Assembly (NCBI GenBank): GCA_964016885.1
Contig: OZ024764.1
Span: 5,394,001 to 5,458,000, forward strand
DNA length: 64,000 nt
Direction of reading: 5' to 3'
Source of the DNA: Eledone cirrhosa
Taxonomy: Eukaryota
In this document: positions 5,081 to 59,997 of the stretch, piece by piece
How the letters are laid out: each line of letters opens with the position of its first letter
How positions within the stretch are numbered: position 1 is the first letter of the stretch
Made by a program: the position numbers and the translations under genes
Notes under the pieces: model-generated
What the model was told of the DNA's origin: nothing
What the model saw: only the letters and a program-made list of their open reading frames with translations
Database searches by the model: none

Positions 5081-5499
5081 TGATGATGATATATATATAT
5101 AAAAGAAAAAGGATTTCGCTTCAAGCATATCTTTATACAATATGTATAAATATTTCGTATCTCCAAAGAAATACGGTTTTAGGAAGCCTTAGCTCTGCAA
5201 ACCCTGGGGGGCTAACGTCCTCTGGTGATGTCCAGCAGAAGCAAGGGGGACAACCGTCTATGCATTTCAGGCTTAACTGACCATCATCAGGACAGTCCCG
5301 CCCACTGCTTGTGACTGCTGGCCAGTTAAGTATGAAATGCATAGACGGTTGTCCCCCTTGCTTCTGCTGGACATCACCAGAGGCCTTGAAACCCTAAGTC
5401 CCTTTTGTTCTGTGTATGAACAGAAATAAATAATGTAATATATATATATGTATGTGTGTGTATCTATTTATATATTTAACTATATTTTTCTCATTACAG

Positions 5500-35100: not shown

Positions 35101-38100
35101 CAGCAGTATATATAGAGTAATGTAAATGTTATGCGAGATATTATGAGGTAAAGCCTTTACTGTGAAAATACAGCAGTATATATAGAGTAATGTAAATGTT
35201 ATGTGAGATATTATGTGAGGTAAAGCCTTTACTGTGAAAATACAATAGTATATATAGAGTAATGTAAATGTAATGTGAGATATTATGTGAGGTAACGCCT
35301 TTACTGTGAAAATACAATAGTATATATAGAGTAATGTAAATGTTATGTGAGGTAAAGACTTTACTGTGAAAATACAATAGTATATATAGAGTAATGTAAA
35401 TGTTATGTGAGATATTATGTGAGGTAAAGCTTTTACTGTGAAAATACAATAGTATATATAGAGTAATGTAAATGTAATGTGAGATATTATGTGAGGTAAC
35501 GCCTTTACTGTGAAAATACAATAGTATATATAGAGTAATGTAAATGTTATGTGAGGTAAAGACTTTTCTGTGAAAATACAATAGTATATATAGAGTAATC
35601 ATCATCACCATCACCGTTTTACGTCCGTTCTTCCACGCTAGCATGGGTTAGACGGGTTGTCTTGTTGAGTGCAGTGTCCAGTCGGCTGACTATGCCTTGA
35701 TATGTTAAAGGGCTAAATAATGATAAAGTAACCAATATCTATAAGAAACTAATGTTTTAGCTTTCTATTTCAGGAAGCAAATTGGAAACACTGATCTCCT
35801 CACTGAATTATATTCTGACTAATTTCCATTTGGACAATCATGCAAACCATAGCAATATTTTACATAAATATTTACATCTCACTGGTCAGTTGCCTTGGAC
35901 TAAGTACCAAATATGGAAAGATACAAGCAAGACTGGCAAAGTTTATATCAAGGTAAGTAATTCTTTTTTTATAAGGTGGTAAATTGGCTGAGTCATTAGG
36001 ACATTGGAGGAACTAAATATACAGCTGGCACACTTGGGGCCCTCATTGTGGGGACTGTTGAACACATACCAACCCACATACAGCGTTATGGGCTTTTTAA
36101 ATGTTCCATCAGCAACACAGAAGTGTTCATGAGAGTGTATGTGGTCTATAAGATGGAGTTTGAATAACAACCTTGGTTTTCTTTTTGTATTGATTATATA
36201 TATATATACGGGTGTGTGTTAATTATATGTGTGTGTTGATTATATATATATATATATATATATATACATACGGGTGTGTGTAACAAACCAGCAAGTCAGG
36301 AACCGCACCAACCAGCAGCTAGTCTCTTCTACCATCTGCAAGTGACGCCTGGGCTGGTTTGGACTTTGAGACTTCCCCCGGAGAGACTGGCAAACCAAGA
36401 AATAAATGGAGCCCGTAGGGAAGCAGACGGAGAGAGCAACCCAAAATGAACTGGCGCTAGACAGTTGAGAGGGACCTGCGAGCGACAAACAGACAATGGC
36501 GGGACGCTGTGCAACTGGCTGCTGACCGAACGCGATGGAACACGACGATTGCCTCATGCGTCGCAAGACGCGGGAGCTTCTGAGTCTGAAGTATTAAGTA
36601 TTTCCATAGAAAAAGTAAAGGAAAGAAGAATGCTCAATGTATTGTACAGAGCTATTTAATTATATAGTATGATTATAAGAGAGGTTCTTAGAGAAAAATA
36701 AGCCACTATACTTAGCCTTTGTTGACCTAGAGAAGGCCTTTGATAGGGTACCCCAATCTGTCATCTGGTGGTCCCTAAGGAAACTAGGTGTTGAGGAATG
36801 GCTTGTGAGGACAGTGCAAACTTTGTACAGAGGCACTGTCAGTAAAGTCAGGGTAGGAATGGAGTTTAGTGAGGAATTCCAGATACAAGTAGGAGTACAT
36901 CAATGTTCGGTCCTCAGCCCACTCTTGTTCATTATAGTCCTCCAAGCCATAACAGAGGAGTTTAAGACTGACTGTCCATGGGAACTTCTCTATGTTGACG
37001 ATCTGGTTCTTATAGCAGAATCAGTAGAGGAGCTAGAGAATAAATTCTGGCTATGGAAACAGCAGTTGGAGTCAAGAGGACTGAGAGTGAATCTAGCTAA
37101 GATAAAAGTGTTGATGAGTAGAAAAGAGGACAAAACTCTGATTCCGTCAGGGAAATGGCCATGTTCGATATGCAGAAAAGGAACTGGCATAAATTCTATA
37201 AAATGCACACAATGCAGATCCTGGGTACACAAAAGATGTAGTGGGATAGCAGGCAAACTAACAGGTAGGGAGAAATACGTATGCAGTAGATGTACAGGAA
37301 AGTAGACAGTAGAAGTCGCATTCAAATGCAGGTGGATGCTATAGAAGTGGTGGACAGCTTTCGGTACCTAGGTGATCAGATTAGCATGGGAGGGGGTGTT
37401 CCGAGGCCATAGTATCTAGAATAAGGACAGGTTGGAAGACGTTTAGGGAGCTGCTTCCTCTGCTGATGAAGAAGGGTTTCTCCCTGCGTATAAAAGGCCG
37501 GTTATATGATGCCTGTGTGAGGAGCGCGATGCTGCATGGTAGTGAGACATGGGCAGCAACTGCAGAGGATATGCGACGGCTGGAGAGAAATGAGGCAAGC
37601 ATGCTCCATTGGATGTGCAGTGTCAATGTGCATGAACGACCGAGCATGGATGTGTTGAGAGAGAAATTGTGCCTGAGAGGGATAGAATGTAGTGTGCGAG
37701 AGAGGAGACTGAGGTGGTATGGACATGTGATGTGTTGAGAGAGAAACTGTGTCTGAGAGGGATAGAATGTAGTGTGCAAGAGAGGAGACTGAGGTGGTAT
37801 GGACATGTGATGCGCATGGAGGATGACTGATGGGTGAAGAAGTGCCAGTTGAAGGAAGACGGGGTAGAGGTAGACCACGAAAAACATGGGCGGAAGTGGT
37901 GAGAACAGACCTCAGATCGCTGAAGCTCACGGTGGAGATGACGAAGGACCGTGACAAGTAGAGAGATGCTGTGCTGAATATGACCCGTCCCACCCTTGCA
38001 AGCAGGGAAAAGCGAACGTAAAATGATGATGATGATGATTATATCATTGCCAAAGGTTTCAAGAAACTAGATGATCATTGTAGGAAACATCCAGCTCGTT

Positions 38101-41100
38101 CGTCAAAATAATTTGTAATAGTTCTGTCTGACGAACAAGCTGGATGTTTCTTACAAGGATGATCTGGTTTTTTGAAACCTTCAGTAATGAAATAATTATA
38201 TTGTGTTGTTTATTATGTAAAATATACGTAAATATACATATATATATATTTGAAAAAAGGAAAAGAATGACTTCACTGGTAGTTGGTATTCTAAACAATT
38301 TAATTTTACAATTTCACAATTTTGTTATGTACATCTACATAACAAAATTGTAAAATTATAAAACTAAATTGTTTAGAATACCAACTACCAGTGAAGTCAT
38401 TCTTTTCCTTTTTTTCAAATATACCTAACTGTACCAAGGATTTCACACATTTTCCAATCTCTCTCCCTCTCTCATATATATAAGTATAAAGTTCCCAGTC
38501 CACACTGGAAAGTCGTCGTGTAGGTGTCACAACAAAAAGCACTCAACATGTACTGTAAAGTGCCCATGTAGGTGCCATAACAAAAAGCACCCAGTACACA
38601 GTGTAAATGTGGTTGGTATTAGGAAGGGTATCCAGCTGTAGAAACCAAACCAATGTCAGTTCTCTATGAGCTAGACATGGTCATCTGACTTGGTTTGTCT
38701 CACAACAGGGCAACTTGTCTTACCAATGCTAGCAGAGAAATGAACATTAAACAGTGATGATGATATATGTAATTATGTTCTATCTGTCTTGCCCCTGGAA
38801 AAAAAATATAGTAGACACTTGACAAAAGGCCCATGTAGTTTGGCTTTACCTGAAACTACACGGTTATGAAACAAACTCCTTAGCCCCACAGCCACCAAGT
38901 CTGCATAATATATTTTAATATGTTTTCATATGCCAACTATTTTCAGCTGCAACTTATTTTTAATGTTCAACTCCCTGATAGTTATCTTGAAACTCTACAT
39001 AACATGTTTCCAAAACATGTTAATCCTGAAACAATACAGGAATTTTATAAGCAAGTATCAACAAAGGTAAGCCAATTTTGATATTGTAGCAGTTCTATAA
39101 GTCTTCTTGGTTTGAGATTTTCCCTTTAATGTTCAAACCGGCCAAAACCGGCCAGAATTTTCTACCCTTTTCTGTTGAAACTGGATATAACTGGTCATTC
39201 AAACTGATGTTAAGGTATTGTTCTCAAAATAAATACTTTCAAAATCTCATAGATTCGATATCATGTGAGATAATTATGCGAGGTAAAGCCTCTACCATGA
39301 AAATATAATAGTATATATAGAGTAATGTGTATGTTAAAGGGTTAAGCTGGCATGATGATATCATAGTGATTGCCAAATCTTCAGTCCAGAAAGTTGGTTC
39401 ACTCTGTTGTATAAGAATATCTTATTTCTTTATAAATTTACCAAATAGATTGAATAAGAAAATACTGTATACACTCATATGTGGTATGTGTTGCATGTAT
39501 TAGCAACAGAATTTTTAAGTGAAGTACTAAAATATTTTCACTTTGGTGGTGAATATTACACCTGTTTCACTTTGGTGGTTAATATTACACCGGTTTCACT
39601 TTGGAGGTGAAAATTACACCTGTTTCACTTTGGAGGTGAAATTTGTTTTTCTTATTGCTTTCTGTGTTTTGAATGAATATGGCCTTCAAAAGAGTCAGAA
39701 ATTGGTAAAAACATTATGTAATGGAGTTGTGAAACAAAAACTATTCTTTAAATGACACTTAAAACCTTTTAAATATCAAAATATAAAAACTTTATAAATA
39801 TATTCTCCATTCATGAGAATTTCACAACTGCACCATCTAAACATAATGTGTTTATATGTTGCCTTGTCTTATATACAGGGTTTGGATTTTTGCCCATCTC
39901 TCAGACATAAAATGGTGGAGGTCAGCTCTTATTTGTTTATATACAGTAGTTAGAAATGTTGTTCTATAGAGGCAGTCAGATGACTCTATCTAGTGTTGAG
40001 AACTTAATGAAAGTGTAAAGATCAGATAGAAAATATATGATTGATGGAGAAAATAGTAATAAATGTTGATTCTCTTCCTTGTTTGTTTTACCTCTTTAGA
40101 GACAGAGTGATAAAATACCAGCTATTTATACTACTGATCAACTAAGGACGATATTATCTGCTGTAAGTATACATACAATATTTTGACAGCACACTAGCCA
40201 AGTCAACAACACATACATATCTTTTGAGAGTGTATAGCTTAGTGGTTGGAGAGTTGGTTTCGCAATCATAAGGTTGTAAATTCAATTCTCAGAAGAGGGG
40301 ATGTGTTGTTTCCTTGAGCAAAACACTTTATTATTCATGTTGCTCCCATTCACACAACTGTAGAAATGTGATGCCAAGCACTATTAGACTTTACCTTGGA
40401 CAACATTAATGGTATGAAGAAGGTAAACTGATGTACATGGGCAACTGTTGGTCTTTCACAAAAACACCTTGCCCAGACTTGTGCCTTGTACTTGTACTTT
40501 CTAGGTGCAAGTCCCATAATTCAGAGCATACTTATACACTGTTATCATGGGAACAACAATAATTATATTTTGTAATACATATGACGAGGCAGGAGACAGA
40601 AATTTTCTCATATTAATTAAATTCTTGCCTATACTACAGTTTTAAACCAAGAGAAAAATACTATTTACCATAATTAAAATATACCAGATAATTAGTAAAT
40701 TTAAGATAATCTTCATCATCAGTAGACATGTTTTTTAGTGCAACAAAATAAATATTATCTCGCTCTCTCTCTATATATATATTATGGAGGCACATGGCTT
40801 AGTGGTTAGAGCATTGGCCTTGCAATCGAAAGGTTGTGAGTTCAATTCTCAGACCGGGTGATGTGTTGTTTCCTTGAGCAAGACACTTTATTTCACATTG
40901 CTCCAGTTTACTCAGCTGTAGAAATGTGAAAGTGGTCGTGGAGGTGCCACGGCAAACAAAAAAAAGCACCCACCACTCACTGTAAATGAGGTTGGTGTTA
41001 GGAAGGGCATCCAGCTGTAGAAATCAAGCCAGAATCAGTTCCCGTCCCACCCTTGCAGGCAGGGAAAAAGCGGACGTAAAATGAAATGATGATGATGATG

Positions 41101-44100
41101 AAGCAATCACAGGGGAGGGATAATTTGTAAAGTGTTTCATGTGTTTATTTTAAATATATATATATATCTCAATCAATTTCATTCATTTCGTTTTTACGCC
41201 CGCTTTTTCTCTGCTTGCAAGGGTGGGAGACGGGAACTGATTCTGGCTTGATTTCTAGAGCTGGATGCCCTTCCTAACACCAACCTCATTTACAGTGAGT
41301 GCTGGGTGCTTTTTTGCCGTGGCACCTCCACGACCACTTTGCAGTGGAATGATATGAACCCCAGTCCCTATCATCTCATTTCTACAGCTGAGTAAACTGG
41401 AACAATGTGAAATAAAGTGTCTTGCTCAAGGAAACAACACACCACCCGGTCTAAGAATTGAACTCACAACCTTTCCATTGCCAGGCCAATGCTCTAACCA
41501 CTAAGCCATGTGCCTCCATATATGTCAATCAATTTCTAGTTTATATAAAATGCTCGGATCTATTCATTGGAATCTTTGAGCTTATTCTACGGTGGATATG
41601 GTGCATGTCTCGGACATGACTCCCTTAATTTAACTAAATTTTGGATATATACACAGCCCCTTAATTGTAGAGCTAACTCAGTTGAAAGGACTCGGCTGCT
41701 ATTTCTAGCTGTCGATAACCCTATTCACGCCACTGGGATGACGTTGACACGATGTGTGTAGTTTTAGGGATGCAACACGTGCAACTGGTCATTTGCAGAT
41801 TTGCATTTGATGTGTAAACACAGATAGTTGATTCTTCCCCCCTTGCTGAAGATCCGGGATTTTGACTACTGTGACTTTACGGATTAATGGTGAAATATAT
41901 TTCTCTATACAAGGAAGATTAATCATTTTTAAAAGGTAATATTTGAAGTTCTAGTTAAACTTTAATTAGTTACCTACCTAGCTATGTGTAATTACACACT
42001 TTACAAATTATTCCCTGTGATTGTTTCATATGTTTATTTTAAAAATATATATATGTCAATCATATATATGTTTGTGTATGCGTTTGTGTGTGTGTGTTCA
42101 TGTCTGTGTGTTTGTATTCTATCTTTGCTCACTAGTGTGTGTTTATGTGTGGTTGTTGTTGTACCTGTGTATATTTATATTTACCTTAGGTCAGTATTGT
42201 GTGTTTATGTATGGTTGTTGTTGTACCTGTGTATATTTATTTATATTTACCTTAGGTCAGTATTGTGTGTTTATGTATGGTTGTTGTTGTACCTGTGTAT
42301 ATTTATTTATATTTACCTTAGGTCAGTATTGTGTGTTTATGTATGGTTGTTGTTGTACCTGTGTATATTTATTTATATTTACCTTAGGTCAGTATTGTTT
42401 GTGTATGGTGGTAGTTGTTATTCCATTCATTTTTTCTGTTTAGCTTTGGCCTTCTAAGTTCTATTTCACTGGCCTCTCTGATTTACCTATCTGCTGGGTC
42501 ATTTCTATGTTTATATATTATTTTAATTTCTATGTTGTCTATGTTACCATCATGTCTTTGTCCGGCATGTTTGTATAGTAGCGAACTGTCTTTTTGTCCT
42601 TTTAGTTTCCCCCCAGTGTTGGTCTAATCTCTCTCCTATGCTACGAGCTGTCTCACCTATGTATGTCATTGTCATGTTTCTGCAGGTAACCTCTGTACAT
42701 CTTATGCTATAGACTACATTTCTAGCTTTACAGTTTATTTGTGGATTTATTCCACAAACACATTTCTTATTCATACAGTGGGTTTTCTTAAAGGGGTAAA
42801 ACACACACACAGACGCATGCACAGAGACAAGAATAAATAAATAAATAAAAATGGAATAGACATTACAACACAATGGGAGGAAACGTAATAGTACCCCTGA
42901 TGATGTCACAGGTGTGTGATGAAAGAACTTTGATAGACTATATATATATATATATTAACCATTGGTCAACTAATGATAAACATTGATTTCCAGCTAAATT
43001 AACTATAGAGATATAAAATATACAGTGAATGTGTTTTATTATTTATTAGGGTGGTGAATTGGCAGTAACGGTAGAGGGTTGGATGCCATGCTTTCTAGCA
43101 TAGTTACATCCCTTTACAGTCTGAGTTCAAATCCCGCCGAGGTTAACTTTGCCTTTCATCCTTACGGTTTCGATAAAATAAAGTACCAGTAATGTACTGG
43201 GTAATTGCTGGCCTTGTGCCTAAAGTAGAAACAATTATTATTTCTGACAATATAACAATATGACCCTCCCTAAATATAACAATATATATATATATATATA
43301 TACAGGGTGGGTGGAAAGTAACGCCCTATTGAAAATTACTTTTGGCCTAATATGACCACTTTGGACAACCTCAATGACCTCAGATTCATGCATGCACTCT
43401 TTGTGAGTGGCTTCATGTCCATTTTCCAGGATGTTCGCTAGGCTGTCAAATAAAATGTTTTATGAAAATTGACCAATAATTGATACATTTTGTAACAACT
43501 TTAAATCGGTAGTTTCTTTCCACCCACTCTGTATATACACTTGTTTTATGCCATGCAGTGAATTATATCTGATATAGTAGAAGAGAGAAGACTGCATTGG
43601 TATGGACATGGGATGCACATGGATGATGACTGAGGGGTAAAGTGCCAGGAAATCCCAGTGGAAGCAAGCCACAGTAGAGGAAGACCAAGGAAGACGTGGC
43701 CTGAGGTGGTGCAAGCTTATCTGAAATTGCTTAAACTCAACAGAGATGACAAAGGATCGTGGCAAGGGAAGAGCTGTGCTGTAAAAAGATCCGTCCAATC
43801 CCTGCAAGTGTATGTAAAAACGATGATGGTGGTGGCTGTGGTGATGTTGGGGGCAGGGGGTCTAATTGTTTGTGTCTTTGCCTACCTCAGCCCAAAGAAA
43901 ATATTAAATTAGTTTCTTTTCTTATTTACAGTTTGATCTGGTTACCCTATTTGAGGACATACTGAATGTGGCCAATGAAGACATCAACAATGTTTATTTT
44001 GTAATAGAAGACATAAAGACCCTTAAATGGTTGAACAATATCATACGGGAAACAGAGCAAAAGTAAGGTCTAAATTTTTATTCTATTACAGATTTCTCAT

Positions 44101-47100
44101 TAGGCTGTGCCCATTCTAGGACACTGCCTTAAAATTGATCATATTGACCCTAATATATTTTTTCAAGTTATATTTTGTGTGGTGGGCTTTGGTTGGTATA
44201 GGTTTGTTGTTTTCATTTACCTTTATTTATGTGTATATATAATCGTTATCATCATTTTACACCTGCTTTTCCCTGCCTACAAGGGTGTGACGGGATCTAT
44301 TCAGTACAGTCATGGTCTTTCGTCATCTCCTCTGCAAGCTTCAGTGATCTGAGATCAGCTCTCACCACCTCCGTCCATGTTTTCCATGGTCTTCTTCTAC
44401 TGCATCTTCCTTCCACTGGGATTACTTGGCACTTCTTCACCCAGTGGTCATCATCCATGCACATCACATGTCCATACGAACGTAGTCTTTTCTCCAGCAC
44501 ACTACAATTTATTCCTCTTATACACAGCTTCACTCTCAACTCGTCCATGCTTGGTCGTTCACACACATTGACATTGCACATCCATCGGTGCATGCTTGCT
44601 TCATTTCTCTCCAGCCTTCGCACATCCTCCACAGTTGCTGCCCATGTCTCACTACCAAGCAGCATCACACATCTCACACAGGCATCATACAACCAACCTT
44701 TTGTTCATAGGGAGAGGAATGTAGTTCAATTATTCATAGCTGCTGCTGGTCACTTCTTTTATGTTTATAGGGGTATTTTACCTAATTATCTGAGCTATTA
44801 ACATTTATAGCAATTAATTTTCTATGTAATTAATTTTATATCTCGCTCATTCCATTTATTACTACTAAATTTTCATTTCAGGGATTTCCTGATTCTAGTG
44901 TTTCTCGAAATATTTGGCAATCTTTTCTCAGATTACCCAAATCTTTCCAACCAACCAGTGGAACACTTTGAGGTGATTATGTAGCTTTAGTCTGCTTCAC
45001 CAACTTTTTTTAATCTTTTTTGTTGTTACCTCTCATTGATGTTTTATAAATATTTTCATGGGAACTTTTCTTTGTTGCCTCATTTCCATGAGTTTGTAAG
45101 ACTTCACTTACACTTAACAGTGTGTAGGATAACTTGCACAATCTTTGTTCACATATAAAAACATAATAACAACAATGATAAAATATAATAAAATATCTAT
45201 TGTAGTTTCCTGGTTAGTCAGAGTATTTCTTCATGTCTTGGGAGGATCGTGCTTGCGGTGCAATCCCAATAAATAAATAAAAACTTTTCAAAAGTTACTG
45301 CCCTCGCATGGCCACAACCTAAATGCTATAAAAACTATACACATATCTTTATTTATTTGTGTATTATGATTTTATATTTATCAACTCTTTTCTCCTTATC
45401 AGTTTATTAATTCAACAAAAGAAACTAACTTGTGTTTCAACATTGCGACACTGATGAATGATGTACTCAGCTGGATGTATAGAAGAAAACATTTTGATGT
45501 GCAACAACATTACATGGTAAATAGAATAATGTTTCTGTAAGATAATGACAAACAGTGCTGGACTTACCTTACTTTAAAACTTAGGACCACACACCTCAGG
45601 AGCCTCAATTTAAAAATAAATATTTTAATTTTTCTATCTGCAAATGGAAAAATCAATTCATTAGTTAAAAGGAACATTTTGTAATAATTTATTTTTCTCT
45701 TAACATTTATTTCACTAGCCATATATTAAATTAAATTATAATAAAGGTGCATAAAAGAAAAAGGATCATACACAATTTACAAAGAAAAGAATAAAAAGTT
45801 CTCAGGAATGGAGTTAAGTAGTTTATTATAACCTTAATTTATTTTTATGTCCTGATATTTCAAGATTAACATCTCTTCTTCCAACGAAAATAAAGGAACT
45901 ATTCCAGTGTCTCATGCAACTTGCTATACCATGCTGCCCAGAAGTAGTTTTATTATTAAAACTACATATGTATTTAAATATACTAGCTGGACCCGTGAAA
46001 AAATTCACGGATAATCCCGTCTCTCTCTATTAAAACCCCCCTCTCTCTATATAGAAACCCATCCCTTTCTCTATATATTAAAACCACCCTCTCTATATAT
46101 TATAACACATGGAATTCTTGTGCTGCAGTGGCCCTTAAATTAAATTTTAACACTTCCTTATGACATACAAACTTTATAACTGCTGTTTGTAGTTTAAACC
46201 CATTTATTTGTTATTGTTTTTAAAAACCTGCCCAAATTGTTGTGCACCTTATAAACCATCAAATATGGTACATCCATGTATAGATACAGTTCTCTTTTCT
46301 TTATATTGTATATCCAGGCCGATTCCATTGGTGTTTATCTGTTGGAAGCAACAAAAGAAGTTATAGAAGAAACTGACTGGTTAGACAACTGGAGTAAAAC
46401 ATCTGCCTTAGCAAAACTCAAGGTAAATTTTTCTGCAGGGACTTTTCCTTTTTTTAAAAATTATTTACTGGTTTCAGTCATTAGACTACGGCCATGTTGG
46501 GGGAACCACACTCTTTTATTTATTTACTGGTTTCAGTCATTAGACTACGGCCATGTTAGGGGTACCACACTCTTTTATTTATTTACTGGTTTCAGTCATT
46601 AGACTACGGCCATGTTAGGTGTACCACACTCTTATGAGAGGGTCTGGTCAGTTGGCCATGCGTACCCTGCTTGTAGTAGAACTATAAAACTAGATGGTCC
46701 CATTAGGAGGTAGGTCTGGCCAGTTGGCCACGTTGTACCCTGATCATAGTGGGACCTGTGTTTTGGTTGGGATTTTTACAATTGCTGGATGCCTTTTCTA
46801 ACACCAACCACACGAATATTGTGGGACTGGGTGGTCCCACTTATGAATCAAGTCTGGCAAGTAGTGAGCCTTGTTACTCTGGAGTTTCACCTGCAGGATC
46901 ATCAGACAAGAGTCTTATCTGATGAGCCTGCAAGTGTGTAAGTGAAACTCCAGAGTAACAAGGTTCACCACTTAGTCATAATAAATGAATATTCAAACTC
47001 TACTTCAGCATTGAGTACTTTTTCTCACATTCATCAATAACACACGGATAGATATATTTCTTATTCTCCAAAATGGCTGACAGAATTCACATATTTTTCA

Positions 47101-50100
47101 TCAAAACTTTCTCAAAATCTTTTCTCTGTTCCTTCCTCTTCTTACTCTCTATCTGTCTATTTCACCTTTTATTTCTCATTCTATCCTCTGATGGTTATTT
47201 CTTTACACACCCACACACATATATTTAGTGTATATGTGTGTGTATATATATCATCATCATCATCATCATCACCGTTTTACGTCCGTTCTTCCACGCTAGC
47301 ATGGGTTAGACAGGTTGTCCTGTTGTGGGCAGTGTCTGGTCGGCTGACCATGCCTTGCTCATACAGGAACTGATCTGGCTTGATTTCTACAGCTGGATGC
47401 CCTTCCTAACACCAACCTCATTTACAGTGAGTGCTGGGTGCTTTTTCGTGGCGCCTACACGTCCACTTTACAGTGTGGGCTGGGTGCTTTTTTGCCGTGG
47501 CACCTCCACGACCACCTTGCGGTGGGGGGGGGGGGGATATTGTTTATATGCTTCAGCATGTACCCATGGGAGGTCGGGTACCCTGTATTACTGCGTGACG
47601 CCAGAAGACACGGTCGTGTGTCATTGACTTTGAGAGGTGTAGTTGGGTAAGGTCGGCTTTTATCACCTCATCCCAAGTCATCTTGGGTCTCCCCACTCCG
47701 CGGTTTCCATCAACTTCTAGTGCTCTGCACCTTTTTATGCAGCTGTCATCCTTCATACGCATCACATGTCCATACCAGCGTAACCGCCTCTCCTGCACGC
47801 AGCATTTGATTCCTCTTATGCTCAGTCTCTCTCTCAATTCCTTTATGCTTTGTCGTTCACGTATATTACTGTTACACATCCATCGGAGCATGCAGGCTTC
47901 GTTTCTCTCTAATCTACGTAAGTCTTCCACCTTCAGCGCCCAGGTCTCACTACCATACAACATCGCTGTTCGGATACACGCATCATACAGTCTGCCTTTC
48001 ATTCTGAGGGAGAAGCCTTTTGCAGCTAGCAGTGGTAGTAGTTCCCTAAACTTCTTCCATCCCGTTCTTACCCTAGTTATTGTACTTTCTGAGCACCCAC
48101 CTCCGTTGCTAATTCGGTCACCTAGGTAGCAGAAGCTGTCTACTGTTTCTACAGGGCCCTCCCAGAGATTGGTGGTACTTGTTTCCTGTGGCTGTTTGCT
48201 TGCTGTTTCAGCACAGCTGCTGTATGTGAATCCTACATTCTTAATTAAGCTTCCTGAGATCCCGCTACATCTCTTGTGTACCCATTGTTTGCATTTGGGG
48301 CAGAGAATGGAGTTCCTACCTACACCTTTCCTACATACTGAGCAAGGCCATTTCCCTGAGGGGATCTGGGTTCTGTTTTCTCGTCTACTTATAAGGACCT
48401 TAGTCTTTGTCATGTTGACTTTGAGGCCCTTTCTCTCTAGTCCCTGCTTCCAGGTTTGGAATTTATTCTCTAGTTCTACCATAGATTCAGCTATGAGTGC
48501 GAGGTCATCAGCATACAGGAGTTCCCATGGGCATCCGGTCTTAAACTCCTCCGTTATTGCCTGCAGGACTATGATGAACAGGAGAGGGCTAAGAACAGAG
48601 CCCTGGTGGACCCCAACCTGTACGCTAAATTCCTCGCTATACTCATTGCCAATCCTAACTTTGCTGACTGCTCCCCTATACATGGCTTGTACCGCTTTCA
48701 CAAGCCATTCATCTACTCCTAGTTTTCTAAGAGCCCACCAGATTACTGCACGTGGAACTCTGTCAAAGGCTTTCTCAAGGTCGACAAATGCCAAGTAGAG
48801 TGGCTTACTTTTAGCTAGGTACTTTTCCTGTAATTGCCTCACAAGGAAGAGGGCATCAGTGGTGCCTTTCCCTGGTACAAACCCAAATTGCATCTCGTCT
48901 ATATTCACCCGGTCCCTAATCAGCTGTGCTATAACTCTTTCTGTTACTTTCATGACCTGGTCCATCAACTTTATACCTCTATAGTTTCCTCTATCTAGTG
49001 CATCGCCTTTACCTTTGTAGCAGTTGACAATGATGCTATTGCACCAATCTTTTGGTATGGCCCCCTCTAGTATTACCTGGTTAACGATACGTGTGGTTAT
49101 AGTGTGACCTACAGACCCAGATGCCTTCAGCATCTCGGCAGCTACACCCGATGGACCGGTTGCCTTCCCTATCTTCATATCTCTGATTGCCTTACTTACT
49201 ACGCTGCCGCTGACTTGTACTGCTGGTCCCTCTATAGGGTCTACTTGGGGTAGGGTCTCTTCTTCCCATGCATTCTCCTCATTTAGTAATCTATCATAAT
49301 GACTCTTCCATGCATCTTTCTTCTCAGCACTTGTGAGGGCAAGCTCACCTTTATCATTCCGGATACACTTCTCTCCAATGACATCACAACTATCTCTGAC
49401 ACACTGCCTCGCAATCTTGAATACCTCCTGTTTCTGGTCCTCACGTTGTAAAACATGCTTGAATTTTCTATCCTCTGCTTCCCTCCTAGCTAAGTATACT
49501 TGTCGCCTAGCTTCCCTCTTGGTCTCTATGTAATGTACCCTGCTCCCCCCGTTCTTCCATTCTTTCCATGCCTGTCTCTTGGCCTTGACTGCTTCATCTA
49601 CCTTATTGTTCCACCACCAAGTCACTCTCCTCCTGCTTGAGGTCTTACTCCAGCCACAAACCTCATCCGTCGCCTCTAGTAAGTTATTTTTTAGGAACTC
49701 CCAGTTCTCTTCTACGTTAAATGTCTCTATCTGTTCTTCTTTACTGTCGTAGGCGTTGAGTAAAATATCTTTAAATCTGTTACTGGTTGAGGGGACTTTC
49801 AGCTTCCAGATCTTTCTTCTCCAGGTTGGCCTCTGTTTCAGGGCTCGTCTAGTTCTGACCGTGAGGTCGCTGACAACTAAGCTATGTTGGGATGTACATT
49901 CCTCACTAGGGAAGGCTTTTGTGTTTACGACCGTCCATCTGTCACGTCCTCTGATGAGGATAAAATCTAGCGTATCTGTTATTCTTTCCCAATATAATAT
50001 ATATATAATAATAGTTTCACCTCACTAAGACAATGTCACTGGATCAAGATCTTTGGCACCACACAGTAATACAGAAGACCCGCCTTGCCTATGTACAAAG

Positions 50101-53100
50101 CGAAACCTACAGTCAGTAGGCACCTCTTAACCAAATATACACCCCATCCCACTGCCCCTACTCCATCCTCCCATTCCCACCAACACCACCCTTTCTCTGT
50201 AAAGTTATGTTGGAACCACAACATCCAGACCAATCTAAAGAGGTCGTGTAGGTGTCACAACAAAAAACACCCAGTCCACACTGTAAAGTGGTCGTGGAGG
50301 TGCCATGGAAAAAAAGCTGATACCAATCAAATTGTTTGAGACAATCACAAAACACTCAGTGGTGCAAAACTTTAATACATTTTCATCCAGAGTAAACATA
50401 AAATTAAGAAAGAATAAAACAAGCAAATGAATGTGGCCATAGTTTCTAGCACAACAACAGTAAATACAAACAGGTAGGAGACATATATAGCGTGTGTTTT
50501 GTATACATGTGTGTATGTGTGTACACTTCACTTTTCAGTTTGTTGTCCTATGTATTACCATTTGTATTTTTATCAAATATTTTTGTTCAGGAGCTGGGAA
50601 ATAATATCAATATAGGTGTTCCTCAACCAAACCTTATCAAAGCAGACTTAATTAGAGGATATCAAAATGTAAGCTCACTTTTAACCTATCTTTCTAGAAA
50701 TTATTTCTCATGTTTACATTTAAATGATGTTGCTATGTGTATCTGGTTTAGAGTAGACACACTGTATCCTAGTGTCTTGTAAGAGGTAACTAAAAGGAAG
50801 GGTATTCAGTCGGAAAATATTGCCCAAAAGAAGACCCTGTGCTGTGTATGAAGTATATCATTAGGCCCACAAGGTTAACTCCCTGCTTTCGTATAGTAAT
50901 AAGGGGATTAAAACAGTTGGAGCTGCATGTGTATGTATGTAGTATTTTAGTTTTACGTTCTTCTGCGCCGTTCGGCACATCGAGCAGTAAGTAGTCACCA
51001 ATGGTCACGATAAGTGGCGCCTTTTTCGTATCCGTGCCAAGTGATGTTGGCTGCCATCTGGTCTTTTCGGAACATTCACTGCCAGGTGATCCTGGGGCAA
51101 CCCCACCTCCGTTTGCTGCCAGGTGGAGTCCAGTTCAACGCTGTTTTCGAGTGTTGTTTGTCGGGTAGGCACAGAATATGGCCAGCCAGGCGGCACTGGC
51201 ATTCCGTGACCATCTTCTGTAGCCTCCATGACTCGGCTCTCAGCAGGATTTCCTCGTATTTGCACCTGGTCGCGCCAGGACGCATGAAGGATCATGCTGT
51301 GCTCTTCCAGGTTTCACTTGCAGCACTGTTGGCAGTGCGATGTTCTTGTACAGGCACAGCTTGATCCTGGTGCTGATGCATGAAGATGACCAGACTGGGC
51401 GCATCTGCTGGAAAACTGCGGCTCCTTTACCGATCCAACAGTTGATATCATTGCTATTGCTTGCCAGGATGCTGTCCAGATAGGTGAAGTGATCGACTTC
51501 TTGCAGGTCTTGGTTGATTCTGATTGCTGGACCTGTATTGTTCACTGTTCTTATCACCTTGGTCTTTTTGGTGTTGATTCTCAGGCCGATCTTTTGCACA
51601 CCCTCTTGCAGATCTGCAGGGTGTTTAGCGATCAAAGCAATGTCATCAGCATACCAGTTCCCTCAGCCTCGACTGGCCTCTCCATGGGATTCCTCGACCG
51701 GGTCCTTCATCTGTTCGCCTTAGAATGAAATCAGCTGTCAACAGAAACAGCAACGGGTAGAGAATGCAACCGTCTGACTCCGGAGACAATGTCAAAGAAC
51801 TCCGTCACACCAGACTCAGCTTGCACGCAGCAGCTAGAGTCTACGTACAGGGCCTTGAAAATGGCGATGAATCTTGCACGAATGCACTATGAGTGCGCGA
51901 TATTTCACATCGATTCCCAATGTACACTGTTGAAGGCTTTCTGGAAATCAATGAAGTTGACCACCAAAGGTTGCTGGAATTCAATGCAGAGTTCAAAGAT
52001 GTTGCGTAGTGTGAAGATCTGTTCGGTACCAGAGTAATTGTTTCGAAAGCCGGCTTGTTCTTCCCGGAGCACAGAGTCGACAGCCTGCCAGAGTCAACGT
52101 AACAGCACAGTACAGAATGCCTTGCGTGGCACTGACAGCAATGTGATACTAAACCAGATTAGTTGCAGTCGGCCAGATTTCCCTTCTTCAGCAGTTTGAC
52201 GATGACACCGCGTTGTTATGTATATATGTATATTTTTCTGGTTTTATTGTTTTGTAATGGTCAATTGGCAGAATCAGTAGAGCGTCACACACCATACTTT
52301 ACAGCATAGAGTTGCTTCCCTTTACATTCTGAGTTCAAATCACGCTGAGGTTAGCTTTGCCTTTCAACCTTATGGGGTTGATACAATAAAGTACCAGTAA
52401 TGCACTGAGGTCAATTTAATCGACTTTCCCCTCCCCACAAACTGTGCCTAAGGAAGAAATCATTATTTTATAAATGTTCACCAATAGAGGGAGCCAGTTT
52501 CTAACATAGAAACAAGACTCTTTCAACTATGTAAATATGTATGAATATGTTTGTGTGTATGTGTGTGCTGGAATTGATGTTGTTTGTGTGAATCTGGATG
52601 TTTTGAATTATATGTGTACATTTGATGAGTTGTAGTGCACCTGAGCACTGTACACAATAATTTTCATTATCAGATGCATGTATCTATACATGTGTATATA
52701 CAGTTATGACATGCTAAATTTCTGAAATGTAAAACCTGCTACTTGAAATGTTGAGCTGGGGCATGGTGCACAAAAGGTTAGGAACCACTTATATCCAGGA
52801 TAATTAATATAGAGTGTAAAACAGTGGTTCCAAACCTTTTGTGCACCATGACACAACTTAACATCTCAAAAATTGTTATGTCCACTTTCCATATGAAATT
52901 TCCCAGCTTCAATATGACAATGCCTGCCTTTGATATGACAATGTCCCCTTTGATATGACAATGTCCCCTTTGATATGAATACAGCAATGATTAACTGCAA
53001 AGTATAAACAAATTGGTGTATAGGTAGTGCCAGATGCACAATAACATGTACAAGTGAGACAGGAGTTTCTGACAGTAATGACTACCATATAGGTGGTGTC

Positions 53101-59100: not shown

Positions 59101-59997
59101 GGGGTGTTTTTACTACGATGTTTATATCATCAACGTAGCGGGAGTACATTATCAGGGTTAAGAGGTTGCTGTCTTCTAATTGTTCTTTAAGTTTAAGTCT
59201 ATTGTCCCACCATACCATGAATAGGTTAGCTATGTCACCTGCAATGCTAACACCAATGGCTGCTCCCTCCTCTTGGGCATATGTTTTTCCATTAAATTTG
59301 AACATATGTTCCTTAAGGGTTAATTTTATACTGGCCCCCACTGCATGTGCAATCATTTTCTTTAGTTCATCATAGTTTTCGGGGGTCCATACGGCTCTGG
59401 TCCACCCGTTCCATCTATCTGTGTGGGTTTTCTTGGCCATTGAGGTAATGGTAGGTAGTCTGTCCCTTGCTGGTCTTGTAGGGCACAGGTTGCTAAGGTC
59501 ATATGTATCTAGATAATCATTACTATAAGTAAGTTTAAGTAGGAGTCCCAGCTCACTGGTATCAATCCCACGGAATTCAACATTGCTCTCACTGATAATT
59601 TCTACGCATTTCTTCACAGCAAAATCCACGTCAATGGATGGATATAGGGACACAACATCCATACTACCTATTATACAGTTTGTTAGGTCCCTAGATCGGT
59701 TACTTTCGCTGATTCTGCTGAGGAGGTCCTCCGTGCTGTCACATATATCTGGGGACATTTCAATGATGGGGCATATGATTAGGGAGAGGAAGTAGGAAAG
59801 TCTGATGTACTTAGGCAATTTCATTTCACAGTCTACCAGAAATAATTGTAAGTGATTAAAAATAAAGGAAAACAAGGAAAGTTGTAAAACAGTGAGAAGT
59901 TTGTTCTTTGAGAATAATTCTGTTTACTTCACTATTTTCAGCTCCATTCCAAATGAAATGGCCGTCAATGCATTTTATTATCCAGATAATTCTATCT
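5500..59997 (+). CDS. M13 family (neprilysin/endothelin-converting enzyme-like) type II membrane metallopeptidase, partial, 14 exons in window
   Basis: Manually spliced exons 5500-5532, 19283-19395, 22317-22427, 23963-24046, 35774-35952, 38947-39066, 40100-40162, 43932-44062, 44882-44972, 45403-45516, 46318-46422, 50591-50668, 56258-56349, 59942-59997. All have AG/GT borders and consecutive phases match, giving one stop-free frame with M13 motifs in the expected order: TM helix, ACEDFWKY, LLEE..AKRLYTSC, FDL, C..MY..HF, DWLD..K..A.AK, IGVP, VNAFY. Confidence 0.88.
5872..5985 (+). mobile_element. Meta-domain tRNA SINE fragment
   Basis: B box GAGTTCAAGTCC followed by GCCTTTCATC..GGTCGATAAAATAAAGTACCAG; related copies at 22475, 27838, 43049 and 52258. 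Confidence 0.7.
6765..6830 (+). ncRNA. Type I hammerhead ribozyme motif (mirror copy on - strand at 6583-6648)
   Basis: Stem I TATTTTGT/ATGAAATA; CTGATGA at 6773; stem II GGcATAgCATATT/AATATGaTATCC; GAAA at 6811; palindromic stem III TATATA; NUH = AUA. Confidence 0.72.
7787..10830 (-). mobile_element. CR1-clade LINE with an uninterrupted ORF2
   Basis: ORF2 below; 3'UTR ending ...GAGCACTTTACACAATAATTTCATTATTATT; the same 3' end recurs on + at about 52620-52670. Confidence 0.9.
7893..10652 (-). CDS. CR1-like ORF2: APE endonuclease + reverse transcriptase (919 aa)
   Basis: LNARS, VTETW, VYRPP, DFN, LDL, SDH; YRPVSLTS, LDFAKAF, GVPQGSVLGPLLF, YADD, RDLGI, TRGH. Confidence 0.93.
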   Translation of the reverse strand: MLSLNARSLCNKIHLFDSYVKSINSDFITVTETWAHPLLCDGVFSMTGYSLFRKDRINHGGGVMVYVRSNLSAIPCADLNQSQQEVFFCDIRMTMSTLLLGVVYRPPNYHQDTQLCDIFRAAARKTATYVFIADDFNHPEIEWETFRWLPSANDFLELVLDSSLSQVVTSPTRGDNTLDLLFTTTPETVISVTAEEPLGDSDHAMIIANLSLMGSNKNHNHLQTAHFDWNKADWNCYCTELQRPNWLEFYDSGDVDTVLQNILSSIWTACAASVPHKRKKHPKSAIWETAAVRLARKERRNAEREYKFHKSDINRKRRNRSSNHLKQVTKKAVLQFEQRIATSPDSKVFWKYVHSKQRPHSPVGPLRNPHTSQVTDDAKECAELIAECYAGIFTIEDQSVPSPPPMTPNSITTMEFTPAMLRRQLKNKRNHVSPGLDGVTYLLLKRGGYFLLHQLSRFFQFCLNNSATPEQWKTASVIPLFKKGDRTSPVNYRPVSLTSCIAKLMESCVRETLWNFWSFHSLIRPSQFGFIPNSSCCDQLIEFLEDITRITDGGSWVDVVYLDFAKAFNSVPHKRLMAKLSAMGVKDDLFNWLKSFILSRREVVTVLGQHSSPYEMSSGVPQGSVLGPLLFVAYINDIDANLRNATVLKYADDIKLYLEIKRTDPEHYRSYLQSDLDTMQQWISDWQLKLAVDKCTTMHFGSKNPASTYSLHSTNIKKSSCERDLGITVSSDLRWMRHVSKIVKRAEGVLASLSKTFVSRSPDIYLRLYTVMVRPHLEFASPVWNPYLAQDIDRLETVQRRATKRIPSIRHLSYSERLASLGMDSLKLRRLATELVNTHKIVNHVANNNPEFLFDFHVSNTRGHAHKVRKQHSSHDFRKHFFTLIVAEAWKKLPASVVSCRDTASFKASMLPEIRQQNS
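12845..16230 (+). mobile_element. RTE LINE (12845-14243, resuming 16091-16230) with a second RTE nested in its 3'UTR
   Basis: RT remnants; the 3'UTR breaks at GGGCATCCA (14243) and resumes as TCCAGCCGTAGAAAACC after 16090. Confidence 0.85.
14244..16090 (+). mobile_element. Nested RTE LINE (same family as 47250-49970)
   Basis: ORF 14416-15387 with QFGF, FVDLEKAFD, GVHQGSVLSP, YADD; (GAT)n tail. Confidence 0.92.
16540..19097 (+). mobile_element. RTE LINE, degraded
   Basis: TWWWN, NYRDIKL, RT and WYGH-like remnants; 3'UTR with four ~48-bp repeats and a (GAT)n tail. Confidence 0.9.
19283..19395 (+). CDS. M13 gene exon, signal anchor (ALLMAVIIFITIITSILISISGKRSDEHNFENNATNL)
   Basis: aaacag / gtaaaa borders; about 20 hydrophobic residues; phases fit both neighbours. 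Confidence 0.8.
19530..21257 (+). mobile_element. RTE LINE, 5'-truncated
   Basis: NYRGIKLMD, GVHQGSVLSP, LYTDD, WYGHVMRM; (GAT)n tail. Confidence 0.92.
22317..22427 (+). CDS. M13 gene exon (DNQNMACEDFWKYSF...)
   Basis: ttttcag / gtatct borders; matches the M13 PC(D/E)DF(Y/F)xYAC motif. Confidence 0.85.
23323..23888. mobile_element. piggyBac-like MITE with about 6 internal 72-bp repeats
   Basis: TIRs CCCTTTAGCATTTA / TAAATGCTAAAGGG with TTAG/TTAA flanks. Confidence 0.75.
23963..24046 (+). CDS. M13 gene exon (GLLEEPHSIFDIQPVIIAKRLYTSCKNR)
   Basis: ctaacag / gtttgt borders; M13 KAKxLYxSC motif. Confidence 0.87.
24101..24450 (-). repeat. 90-bp tandem repeat (about 4 copies) derived from the LINE C-terminal WLGHVLRK region; inverted relatives at 22735-22985
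   Basis: Units start at 24101, 24191, 24281 and 24371; translate as MRWLGHVLRKDKNNWLRGIEPVANVVKRNG. Confidence 0.85.
24606..24951 (+). mobile_element. RTE 3'UTR fragment
   Basis: Near-identical to 15750-16090; (GAT)n tail. Confidence 0.9.
26323..26667 (+). mobile_element. tRNA-derived CORE-like SINE with RTE-derived 3' tail
   Basis: A box TGGCTTAGTGG, B box GAGTTCAATTC, CCTTGAGCAAGACACTT core, RTE 3'UTR segment and (ATG)n. Confidence 0.85.
28209..30141 (+). pseudogene. Tx1-like ORF1 (gag-like; zinc knuckle CFVCGEATHLQAFC; P/T/K-rich), frameshifted in an A-rich tract near 29540
   Basis: ORFs 28209-29669 and 29509-30141 overlap across A-runs. Confidence 0.8.
30151..33561 (+). pseudogene. Tx1-like ORF2 (APE endonuclease, RT, C-terminal CPRC..H..C finger) with about 3 frameshifts
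   Basis: SLNVCG, SET, AYAP, GDWN, SDH, SPGLDG, FRPITLLN, LDQTKAFD, VRQGCPLS, YADD; frame breaks near the poly-G at ~30630, ~31370 and ~32590. Confidence 0.9.
33894..35712. repeat. 72-bp satellite array (about 24 units) from the piggyBac-like MITE; right TIR near 35702-35712; inverted RTE tail at 35598-35699
   Basis: Unit GTAAAGCCTTTACTGTGAAAATACAATAGTATATATAGAGTAATGTAAATGTTATGTGAGATATTATGTGAG. Confidence 0.95.
35774..35952 (+). CDS. M13 gene exon (GSKLETLISS...KDTSKTGKVYIK)
   Basis: tttcag / gtaagt borders; open frame with compatible phases. Confidence 0.8.
36690..38040 (+). mobile_element. RTE LINE, third subfamily, with a ~79-bp internal tandem duplication (about 37650-37810)
   Basis: FVDLEKAFD, GVHQCSVLSP, LYVDD, WYGHVM twice; (GAT)n tail. 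Confidence 0.9.
38120..38193 (+). ncRNA. Type I hammerhead ribozyme motif
   Basis: CTGACGA at 38128; stem II AAGCTGGAT/ATCTGGTTT; GAAA at 38174; C-CTTCA-G; GUA; imperfect stem I GTTCTGT/ATGAAAT. Confidence 0.6.
38947..39066 (+). CDS. M13 gene exon (LQLIFNVQLPDSY...FYKQVSTK)
   Basis: ttttcag / gtaagc borders; 120 nt, phase 0-0. Confidence 0.75.
39122..39341. mobile_element. piggyBac-like MITE, single-unit form
   Basis: CCCTTTAATG...ATGTTAAAGGG-TTAA; same body as 23323. Confidence 0.75.
40100..40162 (+). CDS. M13 gene exon (RQSDKIPAIYTTDQLRTILSA)
   Basis: cctctttag / gtaagt borders; 63 nt, phase 0-0. Confidence 0.75.
40786..41100 (+). mobile_element. CORE-like tRNA SINE with RTE tail
   Basis: Near-identical to 26323-26667. 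Confidence 0.85.
41177..41517 (-). mobile_element. CORE-like tRNA SINE with RTE tail
   Basis: Reverse complement of the same SINE. Confidence 0.85.
42135..42410. repeat. Minisatellite, about 63-bp unit, about 4 copies
   Basis: Repeated TTACCTTAGGTCAGTATTGTGTGTTTATGTATGGTTGTTGTTGTACCTGTG. Confidence 0.9.
42430..42800 (-). mobile_element. Penelope-like GIY-YIG endonuclease fragment
   Basis: NCKARNVVYSIRC...TYIGETARSIGERLDQHW; homologous to 58190-58420. Confidence 0.85.
43049..43240 (+). mobile_element. Meta-domain tRNA SINE
   Basis: A/B boxes plus GCCTTTCATCCTTACGG..CGATAAAATAAAGTACCAG. Confidence 0.72.
43303..43531. mobile_element. Tc1/mariner-type MITE
   Basis: TIRs CAGGGTGGGTGGAAAG / CTTTCCACCCACTCTG flanked by TA. 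Confidence 0.7.
43932..44062 (+). CDS. M13 gene exon (FDLVTLFEDILN...NIIRETEQK)
   Basis: tttacag / gtaagg borders; corresponds to the M13 FDW...L..T region. Confidence 0.82.
44245..44720 (-). mobile_element. RTE 3' fragment (a + strand relative lies at 43580-43830)
   Basis: LYDACVR, GSETW and YGHVM motifs. Confidence 0.85.
44882..44972 (+). CDS. M13 gene exon (DFLILVFLEIFGNLFSDYP...HFE)
   Basis: tttcag / gtgatt borders; phases fit. Confidence 0.75.
45403..45516 (+). CDS. M13 gene exon (FINSTKETNLCFN...WMYRRKHFDVQQHYM)
   Basis: ccttatcag / gtaaat borders; C....LYV..F-like motif. Confidence 0.82.
46318..46422 (+). CDS. M13 gene exon (ADSIGVYLLEATKEVIEETDWLDNWSKTSALAKLK)
   Basis: atccag / gtaaat borders; matches the WMD..TK..A..K motif. 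Confidence 0.87.
46460..46635. repeat. Tandem triplication of a ~57-bp repeat end
   Basis: TTTACTGGTTTCAGTCATTAGACTACGGCCATGTT x3. Confidence 0.85.
46870..46910 (-). ncRNA. Minimal type I hammerhead ribozyme motif
   Basis: Minus strand reads CTTGT-CTGATGA-tCCTGCAGGt-GAAA-CTCCAGAG-TA-ACAAG: perfect stem I, complete core, GUA site. Confidence 0.8.
46914..46962 (+). ncRNA. Minimal type I hammerhead ribozyme motif
   Basis: CTTAT-CTGATGA-GCCTGCAAGTGTGTAAGT-GAAA-CTCCAGAG-TA-ACAAG. Confidence 0.75.
47250..49970 (-). mobile_element. Young 5'-truncated RTE LINE with an intact 690-aa RT frame (47553-49625)
   Basis: TWWWN, NYRGIKL, QFGF, FVDLEKAFD, GVHQGSVLSP, YADD, FCYLG, WYGHVMRM; (ATG)n tail. Confidence 0.95.
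50020..50330 (+). mobile_element. RTE 3'UTR fragment
   Basis: Matches 13890-14180. Confidence 0.8.
50591..50668 (+). CDS. M13 gene exon (ELGNNINIGVPQPNLIKADLIRGYQN)
   Basis: ttgttcag / gtaagc borders; IG(Y)P motif. Confidence 0.82.
50950..52215 (-). mobile_element. Old RTE-clade LINE of a different family (no finger insertion)
   Basis: GLRINTKKTKV directly followed by VDHFTYL; RLAGHIL, WTPPGSKRRWGCPRITW. Confidence 0.8.
53030..56070. repeat. 72/75-bp satellite (about 42 units, with shorter variants) inside hAT-like termini CAGTGGTTCC (52822) / GGGAATCACTG (ending 56203)
   Basis: Unit GAGACAGGAGTTTCTGACAGTAATGTCTACCATATAGGTGGTGTCAGATGTACAATAACATGTGGTGGAGGT. Confidence 0.95.
56258..56349 (+). 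CDS. M13 gene exon (VYLTDSFHLNVF...KFHRR)
   Basis: atttcag / gtgaat borders; phase 0-2. Confidence 0.78.
56359..57082. mobile_element. piggyBac-like MITE with about 8 internal 72-bp repeats
   Basis: (T)CCTTTAACATTTAAAC...AATACTAAAGAG-TTAA; same body as 23323 and 39122. Confidence 0.75.
57533..58180. repeat. 49-bp minisatellite (about 13 units) derived from the RTE 3'UTR repeat
   Basis: TTACAGTGTGGACTGGGAGCCTTTTTACCCTATCTCCTACACGACCACC; compare 1280-1330 and 3389-3440. Confidence 0.92.
58185..59810 (-). mobile_element. Penelope-like element, RT + GIY-YIG, with two in-frame stops
   Basis: SMDVVSLYPSI, QEEGAAIG, RYVDD, LPVLD, HYAKP; the same frame continues through two stops into NVVYSIRC..YIGETARSIGERINKH. 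Confidence 0.9.
59942..59997 (+). CDS. M13 gene exon (SSIPNEMAVNAFYYPDNSI)
   Basis: ttttcag / gtaagt borders; hallmark VNAFY substrate-binding motif of neprilysins. Confidence 0.9.

Follow-up and report, generated by a model that had tools for sequence, protein, structure and literature searches.

A probable head-to-head remnant of a Penelope-like element, with two decayed hammerhead motifs, in an M13 peptidase intron of Eledone cirrhosa

The minimal type I hammerhead ribozymes (min-HHRs) of metazoan Penelope-like elements (PLEs), as described by Cervera and de la Pena (2014, PMC4209133), combine a short stem I with a longer stem II and a weak stem III. Most copies reported there are solo; monomers showed no cleavage and dimers cleaved little. 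Opposite-strand pairs of motifs, about 100-700 bp apart, are ascribed there to truncated PLEs. For endonuclease-positive PLEs, head-to-head pseudo-LTRs (pLTRs) with a one-sided tail have been described (PMC3846280, PMC8557442), and self-priming has been put forward as an idea for the inverted copies (PMC3846280). In vitro, the Anolis PLE Poseidon shows extension on both strands and two RT start sites downstream of its hammerhead (Frangieh 2024, PMC11167929). The non-LTR retrozymes, as presented in PMC7229834 and bioRxiv 10.64898/2026.07.22.740005, are non-coding, PLE-related, carry type I hammerheads and are arranged as same-strand tandem repeats.

In the 64,000-nucleotide stretch of Eledone cirrhosa DNA analysed here (the window, to which all positions refer unless a contig is named), two hammerhead motifs lie on opposite strands within an intron of an M13 peptidase gene. 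They are probably the remains of an old, dead PLE-end insertion, two short hammerhead-bearing pseudo-LTR copies joined head-to-head before the gene was quadruplicated. The unit is a further family within a known kind of PLE leftover; both opposite-strand min-HHRs and head-to-head pLTRs with a one-sided tail have already been published. The window family resembles the min-HHRs of PMC4209133 in its stem proportions, in its solo copies and in having dual opposite-strand motifs near each other. Unlike the pairs described there, the window pair is just 3 nt apart, the family has a pyrimidine mismatch at positions 10.1-11.1 in place of G-C, and its stem III loop, CCAG, is not palindromic. Pyrimidines occupy 10.1/11.1 in 31 of 35 stem-filtered hammerheads, a set enriched for the window family, and a U-U at these positions is reported for an axolotl retrozyme hammerhead (PMC7229834). 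With the head-to-head pLTR insertions of PMC3846280 and PMC8557442 the family has in common the 5'-to-5' inversion, palindromic or microhomology junctions, an extension of one arm and AT-microsatellite targets; it differs in consisting of pLTR sequence only, with no ORF and no parent found, and in the length by which the long arm exceeds the short one, about 55 nt where those papers give 30-40 bp. Like the non-LTR retrozymes of PMC7229834 and bioRxiv 10.64898/2026.07.22.740005 it has a type I hammerhead, is non-coding and is PLE-related, whereas its copies are inverted and dispersed. The main texts within our scope, to which most subscription papers do not belong and whose supplements may list such families, contain no account of the window family or of a stop of short copies at the transcription start.

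Two complete, divergent type I cores had been proposed here by the initial annotation, and both are present. The plus-strand core starts with CTGATGA at 46919 and continues through GAAA (46944-46947) and stem III with its loop, CTCCAGAG, to a GUA ending at 46957, after which cleavage is predicted; its stem I is formed by 46914-46918 paired with 46958-46962. The minus-strand core occupies 46905-46875, with a stem I extending to 46910 and 46870. Each motif has the CUGANGA, GAAA, UH core and open stem I of a minimal type I hammerhead, and all core nucleotides are intact in both. The two cores form the arms of a single inverted repeat. The left, short arm (46856..46911, minus strand, outer end approximate) is an inverted PLE-end copy, and the right, long arm (46908..47050, plus strand) carries the hammerhead followed by the family tail, with AATAAA at 46980 and ATTGAGTAC at 47010, and stops at the family's long 3' end, ahead of an AT-rich repeat. 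The AATAAA-bearing tail that had been noted earlier, with ATTGAGTACTTTT at 47010, is also borne out. The head-to-head junction (46908..46914, strand not assigned) falls within the 5' strand of stem I of both arms.

Both hammerheads are decayed. In the minus arm, a deletion of 8 nt between two TGCA repeats has reduced stem II to 2 bp; in the plus arm, stem I is interrupted by an A-C mismatch and stem II by a C-A mismatch. Stems I and II are intact in well-kept arms of the family, and the fold energies of the window hammerheads are +2.7 (plus) and -1.4 (minus) kcal/mol, compared with -9.4 kcal/mol for a well-kept arm. A loose core pattern matched the window 12 times, against a shuffle mean of 6.1 and with at least 12 matches in 11 of 100 shuffles, which is not above chance, and an Rfam scan of 44000-50000 returned no hammerhead family at E<=5, the hairpin matching mir-395 weakly. 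We therefore judge the pair to be real from its stems, the family of exact matches and the inverted repeat, and not from the core pattern alone. An assembly artefact is unlikely, since contigs from three runs of one sample, which may be the one from which the window was built, reproduce 46866-46971 without a difference.

The 21-nt core has 663 exact matches in the 3.0 Gb genome and none in a reversed control. Three near-identical copies lie on the same contig as the window copy and share flanks and the M13 exon with it; its closest full-length relatives are otherwise about 80% identical to it, and on these sequence comparisons the window family is an old, dispersed repeat. Among 70 copies chosen on the core alone from the 100 matches listed, all on contig C1, an inverted adjacent arm was found in 29 with a strict score and in 36 with a lax score that 4 of 240 controls also passed; a motif-based count, with one duplicate dropped, gave 37 of 69. 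These inverted arms, together with the inverted repeat itself, support the earlier reading of a PLE pseudo-LTR accompanied by a partial copy in inverse orientation. The arm-to-arm span varied from 46 to 102 nt over the 43 loci in which both arms are exact, four of these being the window and its duplicates, and this variability indicates that the pair is not a fixed unit and was formed anew at each insertion. The fixed terminal inverted repeats and fixed interior of a DNA-transposon MITE are lacking, as arm lengths differ and the centre varies. In one subfamily (L034, L036, L056, L085, L097, L099, L026) the whole back-to-back unit has common diagnostic changes, a common left flank and a MITE-like neighbour; the common changes and flank suggest that there the unit spread inside a larger repeat. 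A 3' extension in one subfamily was considered as a PLE tail and rejected, being an adjacent MITE-like insert.

Counted from the C of CUGAUGA, the 3' ends of the arms fall into two clusters, at about +70-75 and +125-131, and the 37 pairs comprise 28 long-short, 8 short-short and 1 long-long combinations (Fisher p=0.0006). On the 5' side, no common sequence was seen upstream of about -11 in 113 flanks, save in duplicates and one SINE pair. Many pair junctions are near-perfect palindromes, and many inverted arms have their inner end far from the start of the other arm. By eye, microhomology is visible at the junction in L181, L182 and L188, the flanks have AT-rich or (TA)n neighbours, and no target-site duplication was seen. 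Same-strand tandem copies were found neither in the loci read nor near the window pair. Covariation was weak in 66 arms whose rows were picked on stem I/III sequence: double-change cells numbered 14 against 7.7 in shuffles (12/500), and the other four of five measures were not above shuffles.

The membership of the window family among PLEs is argued from its architecture and from its sister families, because no coding parent was found. None was present at 50 GIY-YIG loci (of 150 listed, from 10,597 candidates) or near about 110 family loci, tblastn of the window's PLE proteins against 100 loci gave no match, and a TATA-plus-core pattern returned 13 loci with upstream sequence common only to one duplicate pair. 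The first sister, family C, carries its hammerhead after a GIY-YIG ORF that shares 80% identity with the PLE of the window (59923-58145). Its copies include a long inverted one with the end of the ORF (L268) and a short back-to-back pair (L272). At a further locus (L165), two inverted 402-aa ORFs ending in GIY-YIG are each followed by a hammerhead. In one PLE family (L121-L148) the 3' UTR has, by eye, an apparent U3-A8 hammerhead variant.

Family E, the second sister, is younger than the window family and has 12,625 exact matches; 17 back-to-back pairs (34 matches) were present among the first 100 matches listed, and long-short combinations accounted for 14 of 15 arm views, in which four loci are counted twice. 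The similarity of family E to the window family is marginal, with a score of 65 against a shuffle mean of 37 and a maximum of 67 in 300 shuffles. Nineteen of 30 family E arms begin at -12 to +8, near an Inr-like A located 6 nt ahead of CUGAUGA, and the other 11 have a long upstream part bearing a CCAAT and a TATA box, with the Inr-like A 30 nt (6/11) or 32-37 nt (5/11) below the TATA. We take these CCAAT, TATA and Inr-like motifs to be a putative promoter. About 620 nt of upstream sequence is held in common by L225-L254, without an ORF and with the TATA/Inr-like promoter just upstream of the hammerhead. Family E showed no tie to any ORF. A reading of family E as the end of a coding PLE (L167, L233) was rejected, since in L167 it is itself a back-to-back insertion and the L233/L268 ORF has its own family C hammerhead.

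From the structure of the copies, we infer the following insertion mechanism. The PLE endonuclease/RT would nick both strands at an AT-rich site, and reverse transcription of the element RNA would be primed two times, from separate internal start sites, to give a short and a long arm. Each cDNA would run toward the 5' end of the RNA, whose probable position is immediately upstream of stem I; the two cDNAs would then be joined head-to-head, often at a microhomology. The two RT starts and both-strand extension of Poseidon (PMC11167929) would yield just such a combination of one long and one short arm; unlike in Poseidon, no ORF begins in the hammerhead of the window family. The 5' limit of the short copies is fixed, and its position agrees with the transcription start predicted for family E. 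This suggests a more specific reading, to which we give an even chance, in which back-to-back hammerheads represent promoter-proximal run-off cDNAs whose synthesis was primed twice, from two internal sites, and halted at the transcription start. If so, genomic copies would map the start sites of PLEs. Taken singly, the window locus is of little consequence, being a PLE leftover of a known kind that is present in hundreds of copies. Taken together, the pairs lend genomic backing to the in vitro mechanism of both-strand extension from two start sites, and they point to a rule whereby short copies end at the transcription start of the element.

Much of the same evidence could be read in other ways. 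The family might be a stand-alone, non-autonomous mini-element of about 140-150 nt, with its own transcription and mobilised in trans by PLEs, in which case the window copy would still be a dead double insertion. The fixed 5' limit would follow naturally, the failure to find a parent ORF among the 50 GIY-YIG loci agrees with it, and no copy with a long upstream part was seen in the 113 flanks, against 11 of 30 arms in family E. However, without same-strand tandem copies in the loci read there is no apparent upstream source of a promoter, at about 80% identity the family is old enough for a parent to have been lost or become rare, and the coding family C yields the same short products; we hold this reading to be possible and somewhat doubtful. 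For the inversion step, the main rival is fold-back self-priming, or template switching, of one cDNA in place of two primed cDNAs. The near-perfect palindromes at many junctions are what it would produce, yet in its simple form fold-back does not itself predict arms ending at two fixed points (28/37), and the frequent distance between the inner end of the inverted arm and the start of the other arm also speaks against it. It seems to us rather unlikely.

Transcribed together, the two arms are predicted to form one long hairpin (46853..46976, about -70 to -78 kcal/mol) that sequesters the core on either strand. Folding gave -70.6 (plus) and -77.7 (minus) kcal/mol, with z of -11.8 and -13.9, and the predicted pairing probability of each core base in the two-arm RNA is P>=0.84, whichever strand is transcribed. 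Because the arms diverge, the antisense arm is transcribed first whichever strand is read, and in folded prefixes CUGAUGA is predicted to be captured before the ribozyme is complete; together with the pairing of the core, this would leave the ribozyme permanently off. In the M13 pre-mRNA the ribozyme would thus neither fold nor cut, and the intron would be spliced normally. The initial annotation had proposed a tiny bidirectional retrozyme whose plus copy could be switched off by the antisense arm. The folding of that arm over the core agrees with our predictions; with a core predicted to be always off and helices that have decayed, a role of the pair as a gene switch is unlikely. Nor is the unit a retrozyme, because release of a monomer or circle needs same-strand tandem hammerheads and here there is one per strand, in pairs whose spacing varies among loci. 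The intact core nucleotides of both arms and a stem III loop that can pair as a dimer (-7.2 kcal/mol, computed) are the points in favour of an active retrozyme working in both directions or of a self-cleaving switch gated by the antisense arm. Set against the sequestered core, the poor fold energies and the absence of monomer cleavage, with low dimer cleavage, among min-HHRs in PMC4209133, they leave such activity highly improbable.

The position of the insert within an intron of a plus-strand M13 peptidase gene, as claimed earlier for the plus copy, is supported by the flanking M13 exons and by the borders of contigs from run X4. The exon upstream of the insert (46318..46423, plus strand) has a weak match to Peptidase_M13_N (E 0.0099, below the cut-off), its 3' border is as in other M13 exons, and the intron starts at 46424. 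The X4 contigs, from a run whose kind is not on record, depart from the genome exactly at 46317 and 46423, and their upstream loose end matches 45493-45508, as expected of spliced RNA; a search of the window and of 272 loci did not recover the exon following 46423 in this run. Downstream, an exon with a VNAFY motif and AG/GT borders (59942..59997, plus strand) had no Pfam match, and C-terminal M13 exons lie on the same strand at C25:5617950 and 5629399, with counterparts, assigned by collinearity, in three paralogs. Searches by tblastn and with small profiles from the M13 paralogs gave few further exons. The zinc motif reads GHKIFH, GHEIFH and GHQIFH in three paralogs (L286, L284, L282; C25:5617950, 25339006, 7538110), and two of these three, whose motifs lack the catalytic Glu, are likely to be inactive peptidases.

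The insert is present in all four M13 paralogs and is therefore older than the gene duplications. Over the 124-nt hairpin there are no differences between the window and any of the three paralogous copies. The most distant paralog has diverged by 5.4% over 9.6 kb of collinear sequence, which at a uniform rate gives P of about 0.001 for an identical 124 nt, and neutral decay predicts an unchanged hairpin at about 5% divergence poorly. This raises the alternative that the PLE debris was co-opted, with selection in the M13 genes maintaining the hairpin as a double-stranded RNA within the intron that acts, for example, in editing or splicing of the upstream exon. Another subfamily, in which hairpins diverge by 9-20% and tails by 10%, fits with this insofar as hairpins that diverge like their tails are not generally protected. 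Against selection, the same 9.6 kb alignment contains two longer identical runs, of 233 and 185 nt, so that divergence is patchy, as with gene conversion, which could explain the unchanged hairpin. Moreover, just one paralog comparison is informative, the closer copies giving P=0.06 and 0.77, and two further duplicated loci gave no information on whether hairpins are conserved. We consider co-option very unlikely; if the conservation does reflect selection, a ribozyme-bearing transposon end would have been turned into a host RNA structure. The two longest identical runs correspond to window positions 39810-40042 and 40418-40602 and may be small exons or conversion tracts.

Several other elements lie in the window. 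The sequence to the right of the insert was considered as part of it and rejected, as it belongs to a separate insertion, a fragment of a second hammerhead-bearing repeat (family B; 47062..47193, plus strand) cut off at CTGATG. Family B is abundant, with 929 first-look candidates, and its relatives have a fixed 5' start, a CAAAATGGC motif, which we presume to be YY1-like, and a hammerhead-like core. A broken PLE with RT and GIY-YIG parts (59923-58145, minus strand) lies in the M13 gene beside the VNAFY exon. At 42553-42954, a 5'-truncated GIY-YIG PLE fragment on the minus strand is accompanied by an inverted, family C-like hammerhead (42897-42942, plus strand). A further hammerhead-like core, with a palindromic stem III, is found at 5249-5290 on the minus strand. 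The window also contains minisatellite arrays of 72, 72/75, 49 and 15 nt and many LINE fragments (23316-24033, 33774-35699, 52973-56100, 56352-57072, 57426-58279 and 92-1120).
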